Shown piece after piece: positions 1-6,254 of a stretch of 10,708 bases of DNA. A program made the position numbers and the translations under genes. Position 1 is the first letter of the stretch; every line of letters begins with the position of its first letter. The notes under the pieces were generated by a model. The model made no database searches, had not been told where the DNA came from, and saw nothing but the letters and a program-made list of their open reading frames with translations. Source of the stretch: a virus (Duplodnaviria; Heunggongvirae; Uroviricota; Caudoviricetes); IMG/VR virus record IMGVR_UViG_2585427768_000002, positions 1 to 10,708 of that record; one strand, written 5' to 3'.

Positions 1-82
1 CTGGCAACATTAACAGGCGTTCCATTGCTGGAATTGCACGTTCCGCCACCTCACGCAGTGCCTGGTAATTAATTTCGCTCAC
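1..82 (-). CDS. hypothetical prophage protein, N-terminal fragment (gene continues beyond window start); paralog of the next gene
   Basis: Reverse complement of 1..82 reads GTG AGC GAA ATT AAT TAC CAG... = MSEINYQALREVAERAIPAMERLLMLP. SD AAGGAGG lies 6 nt upstream of the GTG at 82..80. The GTG overlaps the TGA stop of the upstream gene (GTGA). N-terminus resembles that of the 79..759 gene (MSKIDYQELREAAEQ). Confidence 0.5.
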   Translation of the reverse strand, partial: MSEINYQALREVAERAIPAMERLLMLP

Positions 83-759
83 TGATTGCCTCCTTTGCGA
101 AGCTGGGCAGCAAAGTCAACTAACCACTCAGTCATTTCAACCTTCCCTACCAGGTCTGAACCAGGGTGCATACAGCAATCACTCTGCGCCGCTTTGAAAT
201 CCTTACACTCATATTCTTGGGCCACCAGATTTTTTGCAGCTTCTATAGCAGCATCCACCCCCTGCGCCCGGACTTCAGCCAGGAAAGCATCAGTGGTTGG
301 CGTTTCAGGTATCTGTCTCCTCATCCGTTCTATTGCATGATTGAACCCGAAGTCTTCCGCGAGAGATACGTCATCCATATTGTCATTGTCATCCTCAATA
401 TCCCGTGATTTTGGAATTGCAGACTTTATTCCCGCATTCTCAGCAGCCAGCGCCGCGCACTTGGCCTCAAGAGCGGCAACCACTTCCTGATGGTCTTTGT
501 ACTTAACGTATGAGCCGGAGATGTCATCACCTTCGGTGTTTAGCCATGCGTCATTGCAATTCACTGCGTAGGTTCTGATGCTGATGCTCTCCCGCCCCTG
601 ACAGACGCCAGGCCAGTCAATAAAGTATCCGCAATGCCTACCCTCAGACGTGCGCGCAGGATAAATGCCGTTATGACCCGGCAAAATATATGCTACCCAT
701 TCATCTTGCGTTGCCTGTTCCGCCGCCTCGCGCAGTTCTTGATAGTCAATCTTGCTCAC
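79..759 (-). CDS. hypothetical prophage protein (about 226 aa), coiled-coil-like central region
   Basis: ORF track lists 79..792, but the ATG at 792 has no SD and overlaps the upstream gene. GTG at 759..757 is preceded by AAGGAGG (6 nt spacing) and overlaps the upstream TGA stop as GTGA, so I set the start there. C-terminus ends ...LRKGGNQ. Confidence 0.6.
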   Translation of the reverse strand: MSKIDYQELREAAEQATQDEWVAYILPGHNGIYPARTSEGRHCGYFIDWPGVCQGRESISIRTYAVNCNDAWLNTEGDDISGSYVKYKDHQEVVAALEAKCAALAAENAGIKSAIPKSRDIEDDNDNMDDVSLAEDFGFNHAIERMRRQIPETPTTDAFLAEVRAQGVDAAIEAAKNLVAQEYECKDFKAAQSDCCMHPGSDLVGKVEMTEWLVDFAAQLRKGGNQ

Positions 760-1106
760 TGGTTGCCTCCTTTGCGAATCTGTTCCGCCCATTCTTCTAG
801 GGATTTCTCCGCATATTCACCGGACAGGCCATCAATCGGGTGTGGTTCATTAGCCAACTCTTCTTTCGCTGACAGAATCATGCGTGTAACGTCGAAAACT
901 TCACGTAAAGACTTATTGATAAATCCGTGATTGAAAGCCGCAGCAAGACGGCTTGCGGTATAGTTAATACCCTCGTTGCGAGCCTCAGCACGTACTTCAT
1001 CGAATTTACGCACCAGATACTCAGCATTTGTTTCATTCACTTTCAGATCTCGTGGTACACATTTCCCGCGAAGAAACCCTTCCATTTCGAAAACATTCAT
1101 GCGCAT
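756..1106 (-). CDS. hypothetical prophage protein (116 aa)
   Basis: Complete ORF. SD GGAG (plus-strand CTCC at 1115-1118) sits 8 nt upstream of ATG 1106..1104. C-terminus ...IRKGGNQ matches the C-terminus of the downstream paralog. Its stop overlaps the next gene's GTG start. Confidence 0.6.
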   Translation of the reverse strand: MRMNVFEMEGFLRGKCVPRDLKVNETNAEYLVRKFDEVRAEARNEGINYTASRLAAAFNHGFINKSLREVFDVTRMILSAKEELANEPHPIDGLSGEYAEKSLEEWAEQIRKGGNQ

Positions 1107-1143
1107 TTGCGTAACTCCGATAACTCGTTAAAACGTTCCATAA

Positions 1144-1341
1144 ACATCCCGTAACCGGATCCGCGATCTGGACAACTATAACAAGGCGCTGTTTGACGCC
1201 CTGACCCACGCGGGTGTGTGGGAAGACGACAGTCAGGTGAAAAGAATGCTGGTGGAGTGGGGACCGGTTATCCCGGAGGGGAAGGTCGAGATCACTATCA
1301 GTAAGTACGAAAAAGCGAGTTGCAAATTAGCAACTCGGTAA
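1144..1341 (+). pseudogene. rusA: rusA (Holliday junction resolvase) 3' remnant, N-terminally truncated
   Basis: Frame from 1144 to TAA at 1339-1341 translates TSRNRIRDLDNYNKALFDALTHAGVWEDDSQVKRMLVEWGPVIPEGKVEITISKYEK... This matches the recalled RusA C-terminal catalytic region (RDLDN...DALT.AG.W.DD.QV). No start codon or N-terminal half is present; a stop lies at 1141-1143 and the minus-strand gene 756..1106 occupies the upstream space. Confidence 0.55.
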
Positions 1342-1386
1342 CGGAATTGAGCAACACCCTAAATTTGGGTATTACCTCGTTAAAGA

Positions 1387-1406
1387 TACTGTATTTATGA
1401 ACAGTG
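1387..1406. promoter_or_regulatory. LexA-box-like palindrome (candidate SOS operator) upstream of the KilA-N gene
   Basis: Sequence taCTGTatttatgaACAGtg at 1387-1406 has the CTGT-N8-ACAG architecture with an AT-rich spacer, like the E. coli SOS box consensus TACTGTATATATATACAGTA. A possible -35 TTGATA (1412-1417) and -10 TAAGTT (1435-1440) lie just downstream. Confidence 0.45.
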
Positions 1407-1503
1407 TATCCTTGATAACTATTAAAAATCGCAGTAAGTTCATCCTGCATCAACGAAAAGGGAGTGCAGTCCCGCTCGTGGATAAAAATTTGTGGAGAAA
1501 CCA

Positions 1504-2319
1504 ATGAATCAGTTGCTTGTAATTGATGGCGTTTCTGTGCGCCAGTACTTCGAATCTAACTACTGTCTTAACGACCTTCAGAAAGCTGCTCTTCTTGCCG
1601 CTGGTGAGAATCGCTCCTCCCGTTCGCTGGAAGTTCACGAGTTTATGCGTCGTCCTGAAACGAAGGCTCTTGTGGAATTATTGGAAGAAGAAACTACGGG
1701 AGATTCCCGTAGTATTCCTGTCATCACCATTCAGGGGCGCAATGGTGGGACGTATGTCTGTAAAGAGCTGGTCTATGCATATGCAATGTGGATCAGCCCG
1801 GCATTCAGCTTAAAAGTGATACGTACTTTTGATGCGCTTCATAATTCATCACCAGAAGAAACCACATCCGACAAAATTAAATCCGGGGTCATTCTGCTTG
1901 AATCAGCAGCAAAGACTCTAAATCTGTCAAACTCCTCGAAACTTGGTGCATACCAGAAATTATCAAAGGTAGCTGGTCTTCCTGAACTTATGCCGATCTA
2001 TGCCATTGATGCACCTGCTGATGCGCCAGATGGTTCAAGCCGCCCTACGCTGTCGCTGAGTGCACTGCTGAAGCAGTATGGTATCCGCCTGACGGCTAAT
2101 CAGGCATATCACCAGATGGCGAAGCTGGGGATCGTTGAACAACGCGAACGATACAGCCGTACCGCGATTAACAACATCAAAAAATTCTGGTCGCTGACCG
2201 CGAAAGGCTGCATGTTCGGCAAGAACATCACCAGTCCTGCAAATCCGCGCGAGACGCAGCCGCATTTCTTCGAATCCCGATTTCCTGAGCTGTTAAAGCT
2301 GCTCGATACCGTTCATTGA
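1504..2319 (+). CDS. KilA-N domain protein (phage antirepressor/Roi-like DNA-binding protein)
   Basis: ORF track 1492..2319 begins at a GTG. ATG at 1504 has SD GGAG 7 nt upstream, so I set the start there. N-terminal region GRNGGTYVCKELVYAYAMWISPAFSLKVIRTFD matches the KilA-N core motif (G-T-[WY]-V-x-x-x-L-x-x-x-[YF]-A-x-W-[IL]-S-P-x-F) as recalled. Confidence 0.7.
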   Translation: MNQLLVIDGVSVRQYFESNYCLNDLQKAALLAAGENRSSRSLEVHEFMRRPETKALVELLEEETTGDSRSIPVITIQGRNGGTYVCKELVYAYAMWISPAFSLKVIRTFDALHNSSPEETTSDKIKSGVILLESAAKTLNLSNSSKLGAYQKLSKVAGLPELMPIYAIDAPADAPDGSSRPTLSLSALLKQYGIRLTANQAYHQMAKLGIVEQRERYSRTAINNIKKFWSLTAKGCMFGKNITSPANPRETQPHFFESRFPELLKLLDTVH

Positions 2320-2326
2320 GGTGACT

Positions 2327-3316
2327 GTGAGAGCACTACTGACCCCTGAAATTGCCCCGCGTATGGGGATCGTATTGTTCAGGCCAGGTTCAGAGCTGAT
2401 GCCCCTGTTTATGCAGGGGCGTGTCCTGCTGGAGCCTGAGCCGGAGCGTTATTCATCTTTCGCCAGTGGTGCCGTTCCGGCGGCATCACAACCGCTGGCG
2501 GATGATCCTGCCGTTCGGGCCGTGTTCCGCCATGAGGCAGTGATCCGTCGTGCTGGTGGCGTGGAATGTCTTGAAAGCTGGTTACTTCGTGAAAAAGGCT
2601 GCCAGTGGCCTCATTCCGGATGGCACAGCGAGAACATGACCACAATGCGACACGCTCCGGGTGCAATCCGTCTGTGCTGGCACTGCGATAACCAGCTGCG
2701 CGATCAGTTCACGGAACGGCTGGAATCAATGGCAACGGATAACTGTGCCCGCTGGGTGTTGTCTGTTGTGCGTCGGGATCTCGGTTTTGATGACAGTCAC
2801 GTTGTGACAATGCCGGAACTGTGCTGGTGGCTGATTCGTAATGACCTGGCGGATGCCTTACCGGAAAGTGCAGCCCGTAAGGCACTGAGATTACCGAAGC
2901 CTGTTGTGCCGTCTGTCACCCGGGAAAGTGACCTTGTGCCTTCGGTTCCTGCCACCAGCATCATCCAGGATAAAGCGAAAAAGGTGCTGGCGCTGAAAGT
3001 GGATCCGGAGTCGCCGGAGTCTTTTATGTTACGCCCCAAACGTCGCCGCTGGGTTAATGAAAAGTACACGCGCTGGGTTAAGACGCAGCCGTGTGCATGT
3101 TGTGGAAAGCCTGCTGATGATCCCCACCATCTGATAGGCCACGGTCAGGGGGGAATGGGTACAAAAGCGCATGATCTCTTTGTGTTGCCTTTGTGCAGAA
3201 AGCATCACGACGAGCTGCATGCGGATACCGTGGCATTTGAAGAGAAGTATGGCTCCCAGCTGGAGTTGATATTTCGTTTTATCGATCGTGCGCTGGCAAT
3301 TGGTGTGCTGGCCTGA
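2327..3316 (+). CDS. DUF968-like prophage protein with C-terminal HNH-like His/Cys motif (YdfU-like)
   Basis: ORF track 2321..3316. GTG at 2327 is 5 nt after SD GAGG (2318-2321), so it is the likelier start; 2321 remains possible. C-terminus CACCGKPADDPHHLIGHGQGGMGTKAHDLFVLPLCRKHHDELH is HNH-like. A second Cys/His cluster (CQWPH...CWHCDN) lies mid-protein. Family assignment is from memory of E. coli prophage DUF968 proteins. Confidence 0.65.
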   Translation: MRALLTPEIAPRMGIVLFRPGSELMPLFMQGRVLLEPEPERYSSFASGAVPAASQPLADDPAVRAVFRHEAVIRRAGGVECLESWLLREKGCQWPHSGWHSENMTTMRHAPGAIRLCWHCDNQLRDQFTERLESMATDNCARWVLSVVRRDLGFDDSHVVTMPELCWWLIRNDLADALPESAARKALRLPKPVVPSVTRESDLVPSVPATSIIQDKAKKVLALKVDPESPESFMLRPKRRRWVNEKYTRWVKTQPCACCGKPADDPHHLIGHGQGGMGTKAHDLFVLPLCRKHHDELHADTVAFEEKYGSQLELIFRFIDRALAIGVLA

Positions 3317-3333
3317 TTTTGTGGAGAAAGTTG

Positions 3334-3690
3334 ATGCGTGATATGTATGAAGTAATGGATCGTTGGGGAGCTTGGGCTGCTTCAGACAATAGCGGAGTGG
3401 ACTGGCAGCCGATAGCGGCTGGTTTCAAGGGACTTTTACCTCATGGCAAAAAGTCACGGATTCAGTGTGATGATGACGAAGGCATCATGATAGACAGTTG
3501 TGTGGCTCGGTTGAGAAGGTATAAACCAGAGGAATATGAGCTCATCATCGCCCACTTTGTTATCGGTATCTCATTACGTACTATTGCGAAGAAGAGAAAA
3601 TGCTCTGATGGCACAATTAGGAAGGAACTGCAAACTGCAATGGGGTTTGTTGACGGCTGTTTAGCAATGTTAGCTTATAGTATGGCATAA
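3334..3690 (+). CDS. late-gene antiterminator Q, short QuuD/phage-82-like type
   Basis: ATG at 3334 has SD GGAG 7 nt upstream (track start 3319 is a TTG). Protein MRDMYEVMDRWGAWAASDNSGVDWQPIAAGFKGL... resembles the short (about 120-130 aa) Q antiterminators of DLP12-type prophages as recalled. Position after the nin-region genes and before the tRNA/late region fits. Confidence 0.75.
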   Translation: MRDMYEVMDRWGAWAASDNSGVDWQPIAAGFKGLLPHGKKSRIQCDDDEGIMIDSCVARLRRYKPEEYELIIAHFVIGISLRTIAKKRKCSDGTIRKELQTAMGFVDGCLAMLAYSMA

Positions 3691-4884
3691 AAAATAAAAT
3701 AGATTTACTGCCGATTTTTCAAAAAAGACTGGGAACTGTTTATATCCAACGTAAATAAGGCCTCCATAAAACATGGCTGATGCGAGATATTTAACAGTTC
3801 TCATCCTTTTTTTAGCTTTATCAATCAAACCTGTAATGCTACTCTTAATACTATCTGCATTATCTTTGATTTCTTTATTTTCTTCAAACTTTAAATACTT
3901 ATCGAAAGCGGACTCCACTCGAGAACGTAAGTTGTCGAATGTTTCATTGAATATCTCAATAGAAATGTAATTGACTTTTTTTATCATCCAAAGTCCTGCG
4001 ATAATCAATATTGCTTCGGTTGTTTCATTAGCCTTCACTAAGCCACCAGCAGCTATTAATGCACCGGGAATAGTCAATGCTTTTGTCTGATTAGATGATA
4101 TGAATTCGTTAATTTTACTCGTGAACTCAAGATTTTTCTCATCGAGTTCGTTAAGAATTTTATTTACAGAAAACCTCTTTGTGTAAATCTCATATAGTTC
4201 ATCATATTTTTTCCTGACGAGTTCAGTAGAGTTAAGCAAGTCAAAGAAATTGAACGTACCATTTGCTTTAAATACTTCGTTTATGGCTGAGCGTATAACG
4301 AGCTTGCGCTCGCTTTTGTGTAAATCATTGATTTTTATTGTGTCGAGAAGCTCCTTTATAATTTCATATTTAAGAGACGAGTTCGATAAGCGATTAATCT
4401 CGCTATATTGTAAAAAATGCGTGAGTTCGACTGTATAACTTTTGTCTTCATTGGTGAAAAATAAGACAGAGCAGTCACTGTTATGATGATCAGCAATTAA
4501 TGAAAGGATATCTTTCCACATAAAGAAAATATGGATTTTTTCGATGCTTTCATTCTTAGAAGTAGGGAGTATTAACGGCGTTCCGATGATATAATTTTTC
4601 GGAAGAGCGTTTTGGGTGTTTACTCTAGACCAAAAAGACTCAACATTCTCATAAATTATAGCGTCATCCCAAGATGAAGCTTGGCGATCTAGCCAAATTT
4701 CATTATTTTCGATGCAGGTTGTTGCCTTTTTATAACCTATAGATTGTAACAGTCTAATTATTTCAGAACTATTTACAATAACAATGCTTTCTTCAAGACT
4801 TATGACAGTGTAGTAGCCCTCAACTCTGCTTGAGGCTCCGTTAATAATCTGCGCTAATCTTGATAAGTCATCAGCAATTGTCAT
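3670..4884 (-). CDS. hypothetical membrane-associated protein (404 aa): soluble N-terminal domain plus C-terminal hydrophobic helices; candidate effector of a two-gene module
   Basis: Complete ORF. ATG at 4884..4882 lies 2 nt after the stop of the upstream gene (TAA-TA-ATG), indicating translational coupling. Hydrophobic segments at about aa 268-303 (ALTIPGALIAAGGLV...AILIIAGLWMI) and about aa 365-400 (YLASAMFYGGLIYVGY...). Very AT-rich, with AGA and ATA codons. No family recognised. Confidence 0.75.
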   Translation of the reverse strand: MTIADDLSRLAQIINGASSRVEGYYTVISLEESIVIVNSSEIIRLLQSIGYKKATTCIENNEIWLDRQASSWDDAIIYENVESFWSRVNTQNALPKNYIIGTPLILPTSKNESIEKIHIFFMWKDILSLIADHHNSDCSVLFFTNEDKSYTVELTHFLQYSEINRLSNSSLKYEIIKELLDTIKINDLHKSERKLVIRSAINEVFKANGTFNFFDLLNSTELVRKKYDELYEIYTKRFSVNKILNELDEKNLEFTSKINEFISSNQTKALTIPGALIAAGGLVKANETTEAILIIAGLWMIKKVNYISIEIFNETFDNLRSRVESAFDKYLKFEENKEIKDNADSIKSSITGLIDKAKKRMRTVKYLASAMFYGGLIYVGYKQFPVFFEKSAVNLFYFLCHTIS

Positions 4885-4886
4885 TA

Positions 4887-6062
4887 TTAGCTGTCTCTAT
4901 ATCTTTTGAGTTCATCATAATTTGCCTGACTCAATTTTATCACAATTTCGCATTTGTTGTCAGTGAGAATTACAGGCTTATTTGACTTTTCGTCTCCAAT
5001 AGCTCCACGCATTATTTTCAACTTAAAATTATTGTCGTTATCTGCCACTTCAATTGTAAGCGCGCTTTCAGCTGCTTTAGGAGTTGGTTCAAATTGAGGG
5101 TCAATCTGGAAACCATTAAGATTAACAAAATCGACAAACGTTCCCTTACATTTGTGTGAATCAGTCAGGCATGAGTCAATTATTTTTGAAATATCCTCTA
5201 TCTTAACGGACTTATTTCCGTGTTTATCTTTTGATTTTTTTTCCAGTAAGGATTTAACTTCATTGTCAATAGTATCACGCAGTACACGACCGAGTGAGTT
5301 TTTACTAGCAAAAATATCTATAGCACTGAATAATTGCTGAATGCTTCTTTTATTGTCCGAATCATGTCGGCAACCTAATGAGTCTTTGAAAAAATCGCTT
5401 TTAGATTTACCTTGCAAGAAATGTACATATGAGTCACCCTTGTTTTCTGGATAACTGGCTTCGAATAAAGTTAAATCGAACATCGCAGCCTGCCGTAAGG
5501 CATCGGTATTAATTGGATTTAATCTTGTTGGGGTCAACTTATCCGAATCAAAGTCATAGGCGCTTTGTTTATCAACCATTACGATTAGAAGTTTCCCCAA
5601 ATCCTCTGGTTCGGTAGACTTATAGTGGATGAAAACAACGCTCCCCCCCTGAAGTTGGGCAACTCTCGATTCGTTATTAGCATTATGTTTAAGCTTCTCT
5701 ATTATAGCTCTAGATAAATCAATGAATTCATTATTTTTATTAATGTATTTTTTTAGGATCGTAGGAATGGATGAAGGGTTGTGATCTGAGTCTAGGAAGT
5801 TATGAAATTTGTTTTTTCGGCTAAATTTTTTCTCAATTCTGGTTATGAATTCAGATGTGACTTCATTTTTTAGATCCCAAACTTCACCTAATCGATAATC
5901 AAATGCTCTTGAATCATTTTTTTCAAGATTTGCTGTTACAGCACCAATAGGAAAGTACGATTGTTTGCCCAGCACTACAACATGAGGCGTGGCACCGCAT
6001 TTATCGCAAGCTACAGTTGGGTCGTCAAGAACATTGCCACATTCTAAACAAGTTATATCCAT
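4887..6062 (-). CDS. zinc-ribbon protein with NdpA/YejK-like (NA37 family) nucleoid-associated domain (391 aa)
   Basis: Complete ORF. ATG at 6062..6060 with SD GGGA about 7 nt upstream. N-terminal C5-x2-C8-x10-C19-x2-C22 zinc ribbon. Residues 139-147 GGSVVFIHY, 212-220 YVHFLQGKS and SDFFKDSLG align with recalled YejK motifs ([31 protein letters not shown]). AT-rich. Confidence 0.8.
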   Translation of the reverse strand: MDITCLECGNVLDDPTVACDKCGATPHVVVLGKQSYFPIGAVTANLEKNDSRAFDYRLGEVWDLKNEVTSEFITRIEKKFSRKNKFHNFLDSDHNPSSIPTILKKYINKNNEFIDLSRAIIEKLKHNANNESRVAQLQGGSVVFIHYKSTEPEDLGKLLIVMVDKQSAYDFDSDKLTPTRLNPINTDALRQAAMFDLTLFEASYPENKGDSYVHFLQGKSKSDFFKDSLGCRHDSDNKRSIQQLFSAIDIFASKNSLGRVLRDTIDNEVKSLLEKKSKDKHGNKSVKIEDISKIIDSCLTDSHKCKGTFVDFVNLNGFQIDPQFEPTPKAAESALTIEVADNDNNFKLKIMRGAIGDEKSNKPVILTDNKCEIVIKLSQANYDELKRYRDS

Positions 6063-6087
6063 TATATATCCCGAATTATAAGAATGA

Positions 6088-6115
6088 ATTTTTATGTGGC
6101 TGAAAATTCTATCAA
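6088..6115 (-). promoter_or_regulatory. candidate sigma70 promoter for the minus-strand two-gene operon
   Basis: On the minus strand: TTGATA (plus coords 6115..6110), 16-nt spacer, AAAAAT (6093..6088). A TATAAT hexamer (6080..6075) lies directly before the SD. Hexamers identified by eye only. Confidence 0.25.
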
Positions 6116-6182
6116 AACACTAACGCGTACGCAAAAAGTATTGTATTGTGTTAAGAGTGGTTACTTCGCCACACAACTTAAC

Positions 6183-6204
6183 CCCGCCACTGAGCGGGTT
6201 TTTT
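6183..6204 (+). terminator. intrinsic terminator-like hairpin (plus strand)
   Basis: Stem CCCGC (6183-6187) / GCGGG (6194-6198), 6-nt loop, followed by TTTTTT (6199-6204). No plus-strand gene lies immediately upstream. Confidence 0.5.
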
Positions 6205-6254
6205 GTACCTGTAAACTTGGTGCAGTACAGTAAACACGCTGGTGGTCGTGAATA

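Follow-up and report, generated by a model that had tools for sequence, protein, structure and literature searches.

Why should a lambdoid prophage carry, beside its antiterminator gene, a nucleoid-associated protein of the YejK type together with a predicted membrane protein? This question was raised by a stretch of 10,708 nucleotides (nt) from a virus of the class Caudoviricetes (IMG/VR record IMGVR_UViG_2585427768_000002, positions 1 to 10,708), hereafter called the window. On its minus strand, at positions 4887..6062, an open reading frame (ORF) with an ATG start encodes a protein of 391 amino acids (aa), which an earlier note, made by a model from the DNA letters, had read as a zinc ribbon fused to an NA37 (YejK-like) domain, coupled to a membrane protein and carried by a prophage. 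The gene of the partner, a protein of 404 aa, occupies 3670..4884 on the same strand and starts 2 nt past the stop codon of the first gene. Judged by their sequences, the two genes are almost certainly the published anti-phage system DS-1, and they are called DS-1A and DS-1B below. As a whole, we explain DS-1A as probably being gene A of an AT-rich two-gene moron that lies between the antiterminator gene Q and the late/lysis region of lambdoid prophages, and that acts by a mechanism like that of the PANGU operons.

DS-1A was 100% identical over all 391 residues to WP_000355468.1, whose sequence is printed in Table S8 of the DefensePredictor study (DeWeirdt, Mahoney & Laub, Science 2026, PMC13092281), and DS-1B matched WP_000150292.1 over the portion printed in that paper; RefSeq gives identical DNA the latter accession. 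With the NCBIfam models, DS-1A scored 451.4 bits on NF053868 (DS1_1_antiphage, "nucleoid-associated anti-phage protein"; cutoff 330) and DS-1B scored 375.2 bits on NF053869 (DS1_2_antiphage; cutoff 315), so that both equivalog models were passed by adjacent genes. A search of both proteins against PADLOC-DB 2023 gave no match, which is no argument against a role in defence because that library is older than DS-1. In the DefensePredictor study the two proteins, annotated as "nucleoid-associated protein" and "hypothetical protein", form transcription unit D390, which was flagged as defensive (Table S6) and is marked as replicated (Table S8). The reduction of the efficiency of plating (EOP) by DS-1 in Escherichia coli MG1655, as −log10 EOP, was 7.6 for Bas1 (no plaques), 2.7 for Bas26, 1.7 for Bas3, 1.7 for T3, 1.0 for T5, and 0.9 for T7, while SECphi27 stayed at about 0 and formed smaller plaques (PMC13092281, Table S7). 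That table has no rows for T4, RB69, lambda or others on DS-1. Bas01-13 belong to the T1-like Drexlerviridae, and Bas26 to the T5-like Markadamsvirinae (PMC8594841).

The finding is thus already known. The earlier note had called the combination unusual, and this did not hold: the identical pair has since been validated as DS-1, is modelled in NCBIfam, and has received a new name in RefSeq, where older records read "nucleoid-associated protein" and newer ones "nucleoid-associated anti-phage protein". On DS-1 the main text of the paper says solely that "a YejK nucleoid-associated domain" was newly validated in defence. The zinc module (present there as a NinF line in Table S5 only), the architecture of the partner, the slot convergent with Q, and the mechanism are left undiscussed.

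The body of DS-1A, residues about 36-390 (4893..5957, minus strand), is a two-domain NA37/YejK-like protein according to Pfam, PHROGs, Foldseek, and an AlphaFold2 model, in which the predicted local distance difference test score (pLDDT) of this part is mostly 85-96. Pfam NA37 (PF04245) matched with 84.5 bits (cutoff 24.6, E 1.2e-23), residues 64-376 covering profile positions 27-318 of 325, and the assignment made in the earlier note stood up to the profile search. In PHROGs, DS-1A belonged to phrog_3767, "nucleoid associated protein" (376.6 bits), over residues 36-390, that is, starting past the Cys module. The sole sequence match in the Protein Data Bank (PDB) was E. coli YejK, 9be2_A, with E 1.2e-9 from the single sequence and 2.4e-20 from the family profile. 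The structural comparison agreed: the model, built from 27 homologues (pLDDT 86, predicted TM-score (pTM) 0.79), matched 9be2 in a Foldseek search of the PDB with E 3.7e-14 and probability 1.00 at about 19% identity, the single hit below 1e-3 (the next had E 0.06). The global TM-score to YejK was just 0.41-0.47, which indicates that the relative placement of the domains is different or uncertain.

In the phmmer alignment to 9be2_A, GGSVVFIHY at residues 139-147 paired with GGFVLFCHY of YejK, and YVHFLQGKSKSDFFKDSLG at residues 212-230 paired with the corresponding YejK block, as the earlier note had aligned them. The offset of about 30 residues that it attributed to an added N-terminal module is real as well, because residue 64 of DS-1A pairs with chain residue 34 of YejK. 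The basic pore patch in the N-domain of YejK (R173/R176/K177) is partly kept as G218-K219-S220-K221 together with the invariant K226; the 3-residue stretch that holds R176 is missing from DS-1A in the alignment. DS-1A resembles E. coli YejK (9BE2; NAR 2024, PMC11229321) in its two-domain NA37 fold, in the core motifs GG..F.HY and F..G...DFF..LG, and in part of the N-domain basic patch. It differs from YejK in the extra four-Cys module of about 30 residues, in its C-domain pore residues, which are not conserved, in being prophage-borne and mobile, and in always being paired with DS-1B. On the YejK equivalog NF001557, DS-1A scored 81.4 bits, far below the cutoff of 341. It is therefore not the housekeeping yejK, and represents a paralogous mobile branch.

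The N-terminal module, residues 1-26 (5985..6062, minus strand), contains C5-x2-C8-x10-C19-x2-C22, exactly as the earlier note had described it. Such a four-Cys motif is far from what chance would give: of 200,000 shuffles that preserved composition, 17 had one within their first 70 residues. Among 42 distinct full-length homologues of DS-1A, all four cysteines were kept in 39, while the intervening residues vary. They fall into two flavours, CxxC-x10/11-CxxC (n = 22) and CxxC-x9/10-CxC (n = 17), the latter being that of Proteus, Morganella, Pantoea, and Phytobacter types. This part of the earlier reading held as well: the four-Cys module is real and conserved, although none of the Pfam zinc-ribbon models reached threshold on DS-1A (Zn_Ribbon_1 13.4 vs 25; DZR 12.6 vs 27.3; Zn_ribbon_3 11.2 vs 27). 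Short modules frequently miss the thresholds of hidden Markov models. The HHpred results in Table S5 of PMC13092281 assign residues 3-26 to a NinF-like zinc beta-ribbon (probability 86%) and residues 42-382 to NA37. In the AlphaFold2 model the pLDDT of the module was 54-65, and that of linker residues 27-31 was below 50; such low values would fit a small, flexibly tethered, metal-dependent module. The module is present in nearly all versions of Enterobacterales, Morganellaceae, and Alteromonadales type, and is missing in 3 of the 42 homologues, namely two Pseudomonas versions and one on a short contig of a metagenome-assembled genome (MAG). The Pseudomonas versions open with an acidic tail instead, for example MNDLVADQDYDDVDDQND in P. 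aeruginosa, with a net charge of -10 over the first 35 residues. In P. aeruginosa, this DS-1A homologue is followed by a homologue of DS-1B (hhalign probability 100%, E 3e-58). Since the pair persists there without the cysteines, A plus B are the core of the system and the zinc module is a widespread, clade-specific accessory.

The earlier note had coupled this protein to a membrane protein, and the ORF 2 nt downstream agrees with this: residues 269-404 of DS-1B are annotated as a transmembrane (TM) region (PMC13092281, Table S8, TM sheet). Together with softer evidence from hydropathy and the model, this annotation predicts a membrane region in DS-1B. The protein belonged to phrog_5023, a family of unknown function (528.7 bits), and a Pfam search of DS-1B and two distant homologues gave no match. 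Its AlphaFold2 model (pLDDT 85, pTM 0.63) consists of an N-terminal alpha/beta domain, residues about 1-219 (4228..4884, minus strand; pLDDT 85-94), predicted to be cytoplasmic, followed by helices at 220-268, 271-284, 288-331, 337-383, and 385-403. In the family alignment the N-terminal domain was the least conserved part of the protein. Residues 1-225 carry a net charge of -7 (isoelectric point 5.3, 13% aspartate plus glutamate), and the homologues range from -4 to -16. The C-terminal module, residues 220-404 (3673..4227, minus strand), is conserved. It opens with a long helix bearing an invariant FSVNK...TSKINE...QTKALTIPGA block and continues into hydrophobic helices; the best-conserved block of the family, KKYDELYEIYTKRFSVNKILNELDEKNLEFTSKINEFISSNQTKALTIPGALIA, lies in the helix that runs into the first hydrophobic segment. 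Uncharged hydrophobic stretches were found at 269-283, 291-301, and 366-381 (15, 11, and 16 residues), and the Kyte-Doolittle maximum was 1.56, at residue 291. Structure searches with DS-1B returned only generic helical-bundle matches, and nothing significant in BFVD.

When the profile of the C-terminal module was compared with 1.84 billion representative proteins, 472 clusters matched with E 1e-3 or better. In the 150 of these 472 matches that were listed, the module begins at about residue 200-270 in nearly all full-length proteins, which measure about 370-530 aa (one has 615), and the shorter matches look like fragments. From this nearly constant position we conclude that the module is not shuffled from one kind of N-terminal domain to another. 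Only a few distant members had names, and these were gammaproteobacterial (Vibrio, Pokkaliibacter).

How general is the pairing of the two genes? In word-indexed searches, DS-1A had 110 relatives (30-100% identity; Enterobacterales, Pseudomonas, Oceanimonas, Vibrio, Vogesella) and DS-1B had 69, often on the same contigs. Among the candidates that it scored, a profile search with the DS-1A alignment stayed within this family. For the comparison of loci we collected 73 by similarity to DS-1B (12 from genomes and 61 from IMG/VR) and added 8 (L001-L008) taken from the RefSeq record and from DS-1A homologues, and all of their ORFs were scored with profiles of both DS-1 families. In 66 loci, which represent 37 distinct A sequences and range from Enterobacterales to Pseudomonas and Alteromonadales, both genes were intact and shared a strand, A preceding B with -44 to +17 nt between them; the remaining loci were truncated contigs or visibly decayed copies. 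The membrane partner is thus linked in every intact locus, and among the loci examined no housekeeping copy of a zinc-ribbon NA37 protein standing without its partner, the case that would have spoken against the earlier note, was found. Several prophage copies have a truncated or split DS-1A or DS-1B (L024, L038, L040, L050, L078-L080), for example with A proteins of 237-287 aa, B proteins of 189-244 aa, or gaps of 300-1300 nt; this points to lineages in which the pair has decayed or taken up insertions. A match in a "Lactobacillales MAG" (L010) was rejected as a sign of cross-phylum spread: it lies on a 2.6-kb contig, is about 38% identical to enterobacterial versions, and is a probable binning contaminant.

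At 99% identity or more, the 2.4-kb pair was present in 106 of 5,426 complete E. coli genomes (about 2%), adjoining the Q gene every time, and many of the carriers were isolated from human stool or cattle. It was found in prophages, in IMG/VR contigs, and in 6 plasmid records. The genomes of isolated phages in INPHARED gave neither a DNA nor a protein match to the pair, and the idea that sequenced isolates of Shiga-toxin (Stx) phages carry DS-1 was dropped on this ground. In the window, the antiterminator Q gene (3319..3690, plus strand; PF06530, 159.8 bits) is convergent with DS-1B, the two overlapping by 21 nt at their 3' ends (3670-3690). Of the 73 loci whose sequence extends at least 400 nt past B, 42 have the stop codon of B within about 30 nt of a convergent Q stop. 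Among these 42 are Enterobacter, Pseudescherichia, and Kosakonia-type versions, with DS-1B only about 41% identical, in prophages with different terminases. The site between Q and the late region is a conserved moron slot. It implies that early read-through upon prophage induction would run antisense across the DS-1 operon. The pair has a GC content of 35%, compared with about 50% in its flanks, and is transcribed opposite to the flanking prophage genes. It also occurs in other surroundings: the zinc-less pair of P. aeruginosa (L002-L004, about 6001-8422) stands directly beside a Pf-like filamentous prophage (Zot, DUF2523), and on one metagenome contig a DS-1-type pair neighbours a lipase of the type VI secretion system (T6SS) and a Dam-like methylase.

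By what mechanism might such a pair protect the cell? The closest described systems are the PANGU operons, which combine a YejK-like nucleoid protein with an effector and act as sensors of phage-induced genome degradation (bioRxiv 10.64898/2026.04.06.716658, April 2026). According to that preprint, the nucleoid protein of type I PANGU binds long double-stranded DNA (dsDNA) through lysines and arginines of its pore, exits the nucleoid when T4 nucleases degrade the chromosome, and then binds the acidic "DMK" domain of a toxSAS effector, which is thereby activated; a DNA-binding-dead form is toxic when co-expressed with the effector. Type II PANGU consists of Pag2A and Pag2B, both of which are required, Pag2B carrying a DMK domain at its N-terminus and a TM domain at its C-terminus. 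A fusion of Pag2A with green fluorescent protein relocates on T4 infection, Pag2A binds the DMK domain with a dissociation constant of 19 nM, and the phenotype is abortive. No single-gene construct of these operons was toxic (bioRxiv 10.64898/2026.04.06.716658).

By description, DS-1 is like type II PANGU: a two-gene operon, anti-phage in E. coli, of a YejK-like protein and a partner with a soluble N-domain and a C-terminal TM region. Genes of type II operons lie less than 40 bp apart, and the gap in DS-1, like those of the 66 related loci, is smaller than this; the TM region of DS-1B is a prediction, and its segments are short. This shared architecture makes a PANGU-like route the best-supported mechanism, and by analogy we hold it to be evenly balanced whether it applies to DS-1. 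DS-1A is expected to form a dimeric clamp around dsDNA, with the zinc module flexibly tethered at its N-terminus, and in the uninfected cell it would sit on the chromosome. DS-1B would combine its cytoplasmic alpha/beta domain with a conserved helical, hydrophobic C-module able to insert into the membrane. Phages that destroy or remodel host DNA would free DS-1A, which would then bind the cytoplasmic domain of DS-1B; DS-1B in turn would damage the inner membrane, so that the infected cell no longer supports the phage, an abortive infection. T7 and T3 are degraders of host DNA. The same is described for T1 and T5 (bioRxiv 10.64898/2026.04.06.716658), and related T1-like and T5-like phages are restricted by DS-1.

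Several observations weigh against this mechanism, or against simply classing DS-1 with type II PANGU. The N-domain of DS-1B is consistently negative but not extreme, being only mildly acidic, and it offers no obvious DNA mimic such as the strongly acidic, DNA-mimicking DMK domain described for Pag2B. The hydrophobic stretches of DS-1B are short, and its constitutive insertion into the membrane is therefore not certain; speculatively, insertion might occur only upon activation, as in alpha-helical pore formers. The C-domain pore residues of YejK, R276/R280/K284, align with P328/E332/T336 of DS-1A, with K329 adjacent. The phage spectra are nearly complementary: DS-1 restricts T1-like and T5-like phages and T7/T3 with no recorded effect on T4, whereas PANGU-Ecu blocks T4 and neither PANGU-Ff nor PANGU-Ecu, both of which restrict T4, acts on T1 or T5 (bioRxiv 10.64898/2026.04.06.716658). 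In E. coli, a role in defence is also predicted for at least two further "nucleoid-associated protein" clusters (WP_120130707.1 and WP_097733593.1; PMC13092281, Table S10), and PANGU-Ecu may be one of these rather than DS-1. That both genes of DS-1 are required is something we infer, since PMC13092281 tabulates no DS-1 mutants. Bas1 and Bas3 belong to the same family and are separated by a gap in restriction of about 10^6, so that a trigger or inhibitor specific to the phage seems to act in addition to any generic cue.

This strong specificity within one family (10^7.6 for Bas1, 10^1.7 for Bas3) would also suit a reversed division of labour, in which DS-1B, located at the envelope, senses the injection of the genome or an early protein of the phage, while DS-1A is the effector, clamping incoming or replicating phage DNA and blocking its replication or transcription without killing the cell, the zinc ribbon helping it to recognise DNA ends or single-stranded DNA (ssDNA). 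Variation within the pair is greatest in the N-domain of DS-1B, as is usual for sensors, beside a highly conserved C-module, and a role as a roadblock to topoisomerases has been put forward for the YejK clamp. We nevertheless regard this arrangement as improbable: in both types of PANGU it is the nucleoid protein that relocates on infection and binds its partner, and in type I this partner is a catalytic toxin that it activates; DS-1A has no enzymatic domain, and a conserved hydrophobic helical module is typical of suicide effectors.

Defence might instead be a by-product, if DS-1A were a nucleoid regulator or silencer of the prophage and DS-1B a membrane protein of lysogenic conversion or superinfection exclusion. 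A precedent for the former exists in NdpA2 of the integrative and conjugative element (ICE) PAPI-1 of P. aeruginosa, which, like DS-1A, is an NA37-family protein on a mobile element, and which illustrates that such proteins can have regulatory roles there (PMC8565334); NdpA2 is set apart from DS-1A by being described as a transcriptional co-regulator of ICE transfer, with no known TM partner and no reported role in defence. The fixed place of the pair at a regulatory hot spot of lambdoid prophages, convergent with Q, and its AT-richness, like that of H-NS-controlled morons, would also agree with a regulator. But a plasmid carrying just the two genes, outside any prophage context, protected MG1655 up to about 10^7-fold from unrelated lytic phages; some copies of the pair lack a recognisable Q or lysis neighbourhood, as the P. 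aeruginosa filamentous prophage and the contig with the T6SS lipase and Dam-like methylase illustrate; and DS-1A falls well short of the YejK equivalog cutoff. Such a role is accordingly quite improbable. Least probable of all, and very much so, is a toxin-antitoxin pair in which phage shut-off of host expression depletes a labile antitoxin, DS-1A, and releases a membrane toxin, DS-1B. Many abortive-infection systems operate in this way, and the tight operon with its nearly overlapping stop and start codons and the hydrophobic C-terminus of DS-1B are in line with it, yet the single genes of the analogous PANGU operons are non-toxic, the nucleoid protein there is an activator and not an antitoxin, and a two-domain DNA clamp of 391 aa is unlike known antitoxins.

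Returning to the PANGU-like mechanism, what could the four cysteines contribute to it? The PANGU preprint nowhere mentions zinc, while DS-1A has its four-Cys module. Tentatively, and we think this rather unlikely, the module may make DS-1A a nucleoid-protein sensor whose gating or trigger differs from that of the PANGU proteins reported to date. The part of the module could be to hold shut or release the clamp at its weak N-domain gate, to recognise a phage-specific cue (a protein, DNA ends, or ssDNA), or to dock on DS-1B.

The rest of the window bears out the prophage setting that the earlier note had assumed. To the left of the pair lie KilA-N, DUF968/HNH, and Q genes, with an Ead/Ea22-like gene further out, and to the right a small ORF, an AraC-type regulator, three tRNAs, the STnc100 small RNA, and an esterase of the SASA family; the RefSeq copy of the locus runs on into holin, lysozyme, Rz-like, and terminase genes. 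Upstream of DS-1A, a consensus scan gave a sigma-70-like promoter candidate, TTGATA-16-AAAAAT (6088..6115, minus strand; 9 of 12 matches). This candidate is weak because the region around the gene has no more such sites than shuffled sequence. A strong intrinsic-terminator-like hairpin (CCCGC...GCGGG followed by T6) lies at 6183-6198 on the plus strand, about 120 nt beyond the start of DS-1A in the intergenic region 6063-6330. It may be a tR'-like terminator of the short late-promoter transcript, displaced from Q by the 2.4-kb insertion. Between the pair and the tRNAs are a 65-aa ORF of unknown function (6329-6526, plus strand; phrog_331) and a 237-aa AraC-family helix-turn-helix regulator (6661-7374, plus strand; phrog_1450), and both accompany the pair in several IMG/VR loci (L028, L031, L032, L040).

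The three-tRNA cluster (7403-7652) has the anticodons CAT (Met by ARAGORN, Ile in RefSeq), Arg-TCG, and Arg-TCT, and we take it to resemble the ileZ-argN-argO cluster located ahead of stx in Stx phages; the window has no stx gene after it. A full-length match to STnc100 (Rfam RF02076; 140 bits, gathering score 47) is located at 7728-7918 on the plus strand, between the tRNAs and a 653-aa protein (8141-10102, plus strand) with DUF1737, SASA (sialate O-acetylesterase-type), and DUF6645 domains, a "SASA family carbohydrate esterase" in RefSeq and typical cargo of lambdoid and Stx prophages. At the other end of the window, two overlapping ORFs on the minus strand (79-792 and 756-1106; PHROG families 368 and 614), one of them Ead/Ea22-like (PF13935), have near-identical C-terminal tails (...QLRKGGNQ and ...QIRKGGNQ) and look like tandem paralogues. 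The KilA-N domain protein (1492-2319, plus strand) gave a weak local match to the PADLOC candidate PDC-S22 (36 bits, E 7.6e-10), which probably reflects just the shared KilA-N-type domain.

A reading of the raw sequence thus picked out a real defence gene pair. What seems undescribed is incremental: the conservation of the Cys module and its two flavours, its replacement by an acidic tail in Pseudomonas, the architecture of DS-1B, the Q-convergent slot, and the spectrum complementary to that of PANGU-Ecu. The use of nucleoid-associated proteins as sensors of infection is a very recent idea, of which DS-1 is a naturally prophage-borne example, and the zinc module, the fixed architecture of DS-1B, and the Q slot provide small, testable handles on the tuning of such sensors. 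If the Cys module does retune the sensor, this could account for the action of DS-1 on T1-, T5-, and T7-like phages and apparently not on T4, the opposite of PANGU-Ecu, and DS-1 would then represent its own variety of immunity based on nucleoid proteins, and not simply a type II PANGU.

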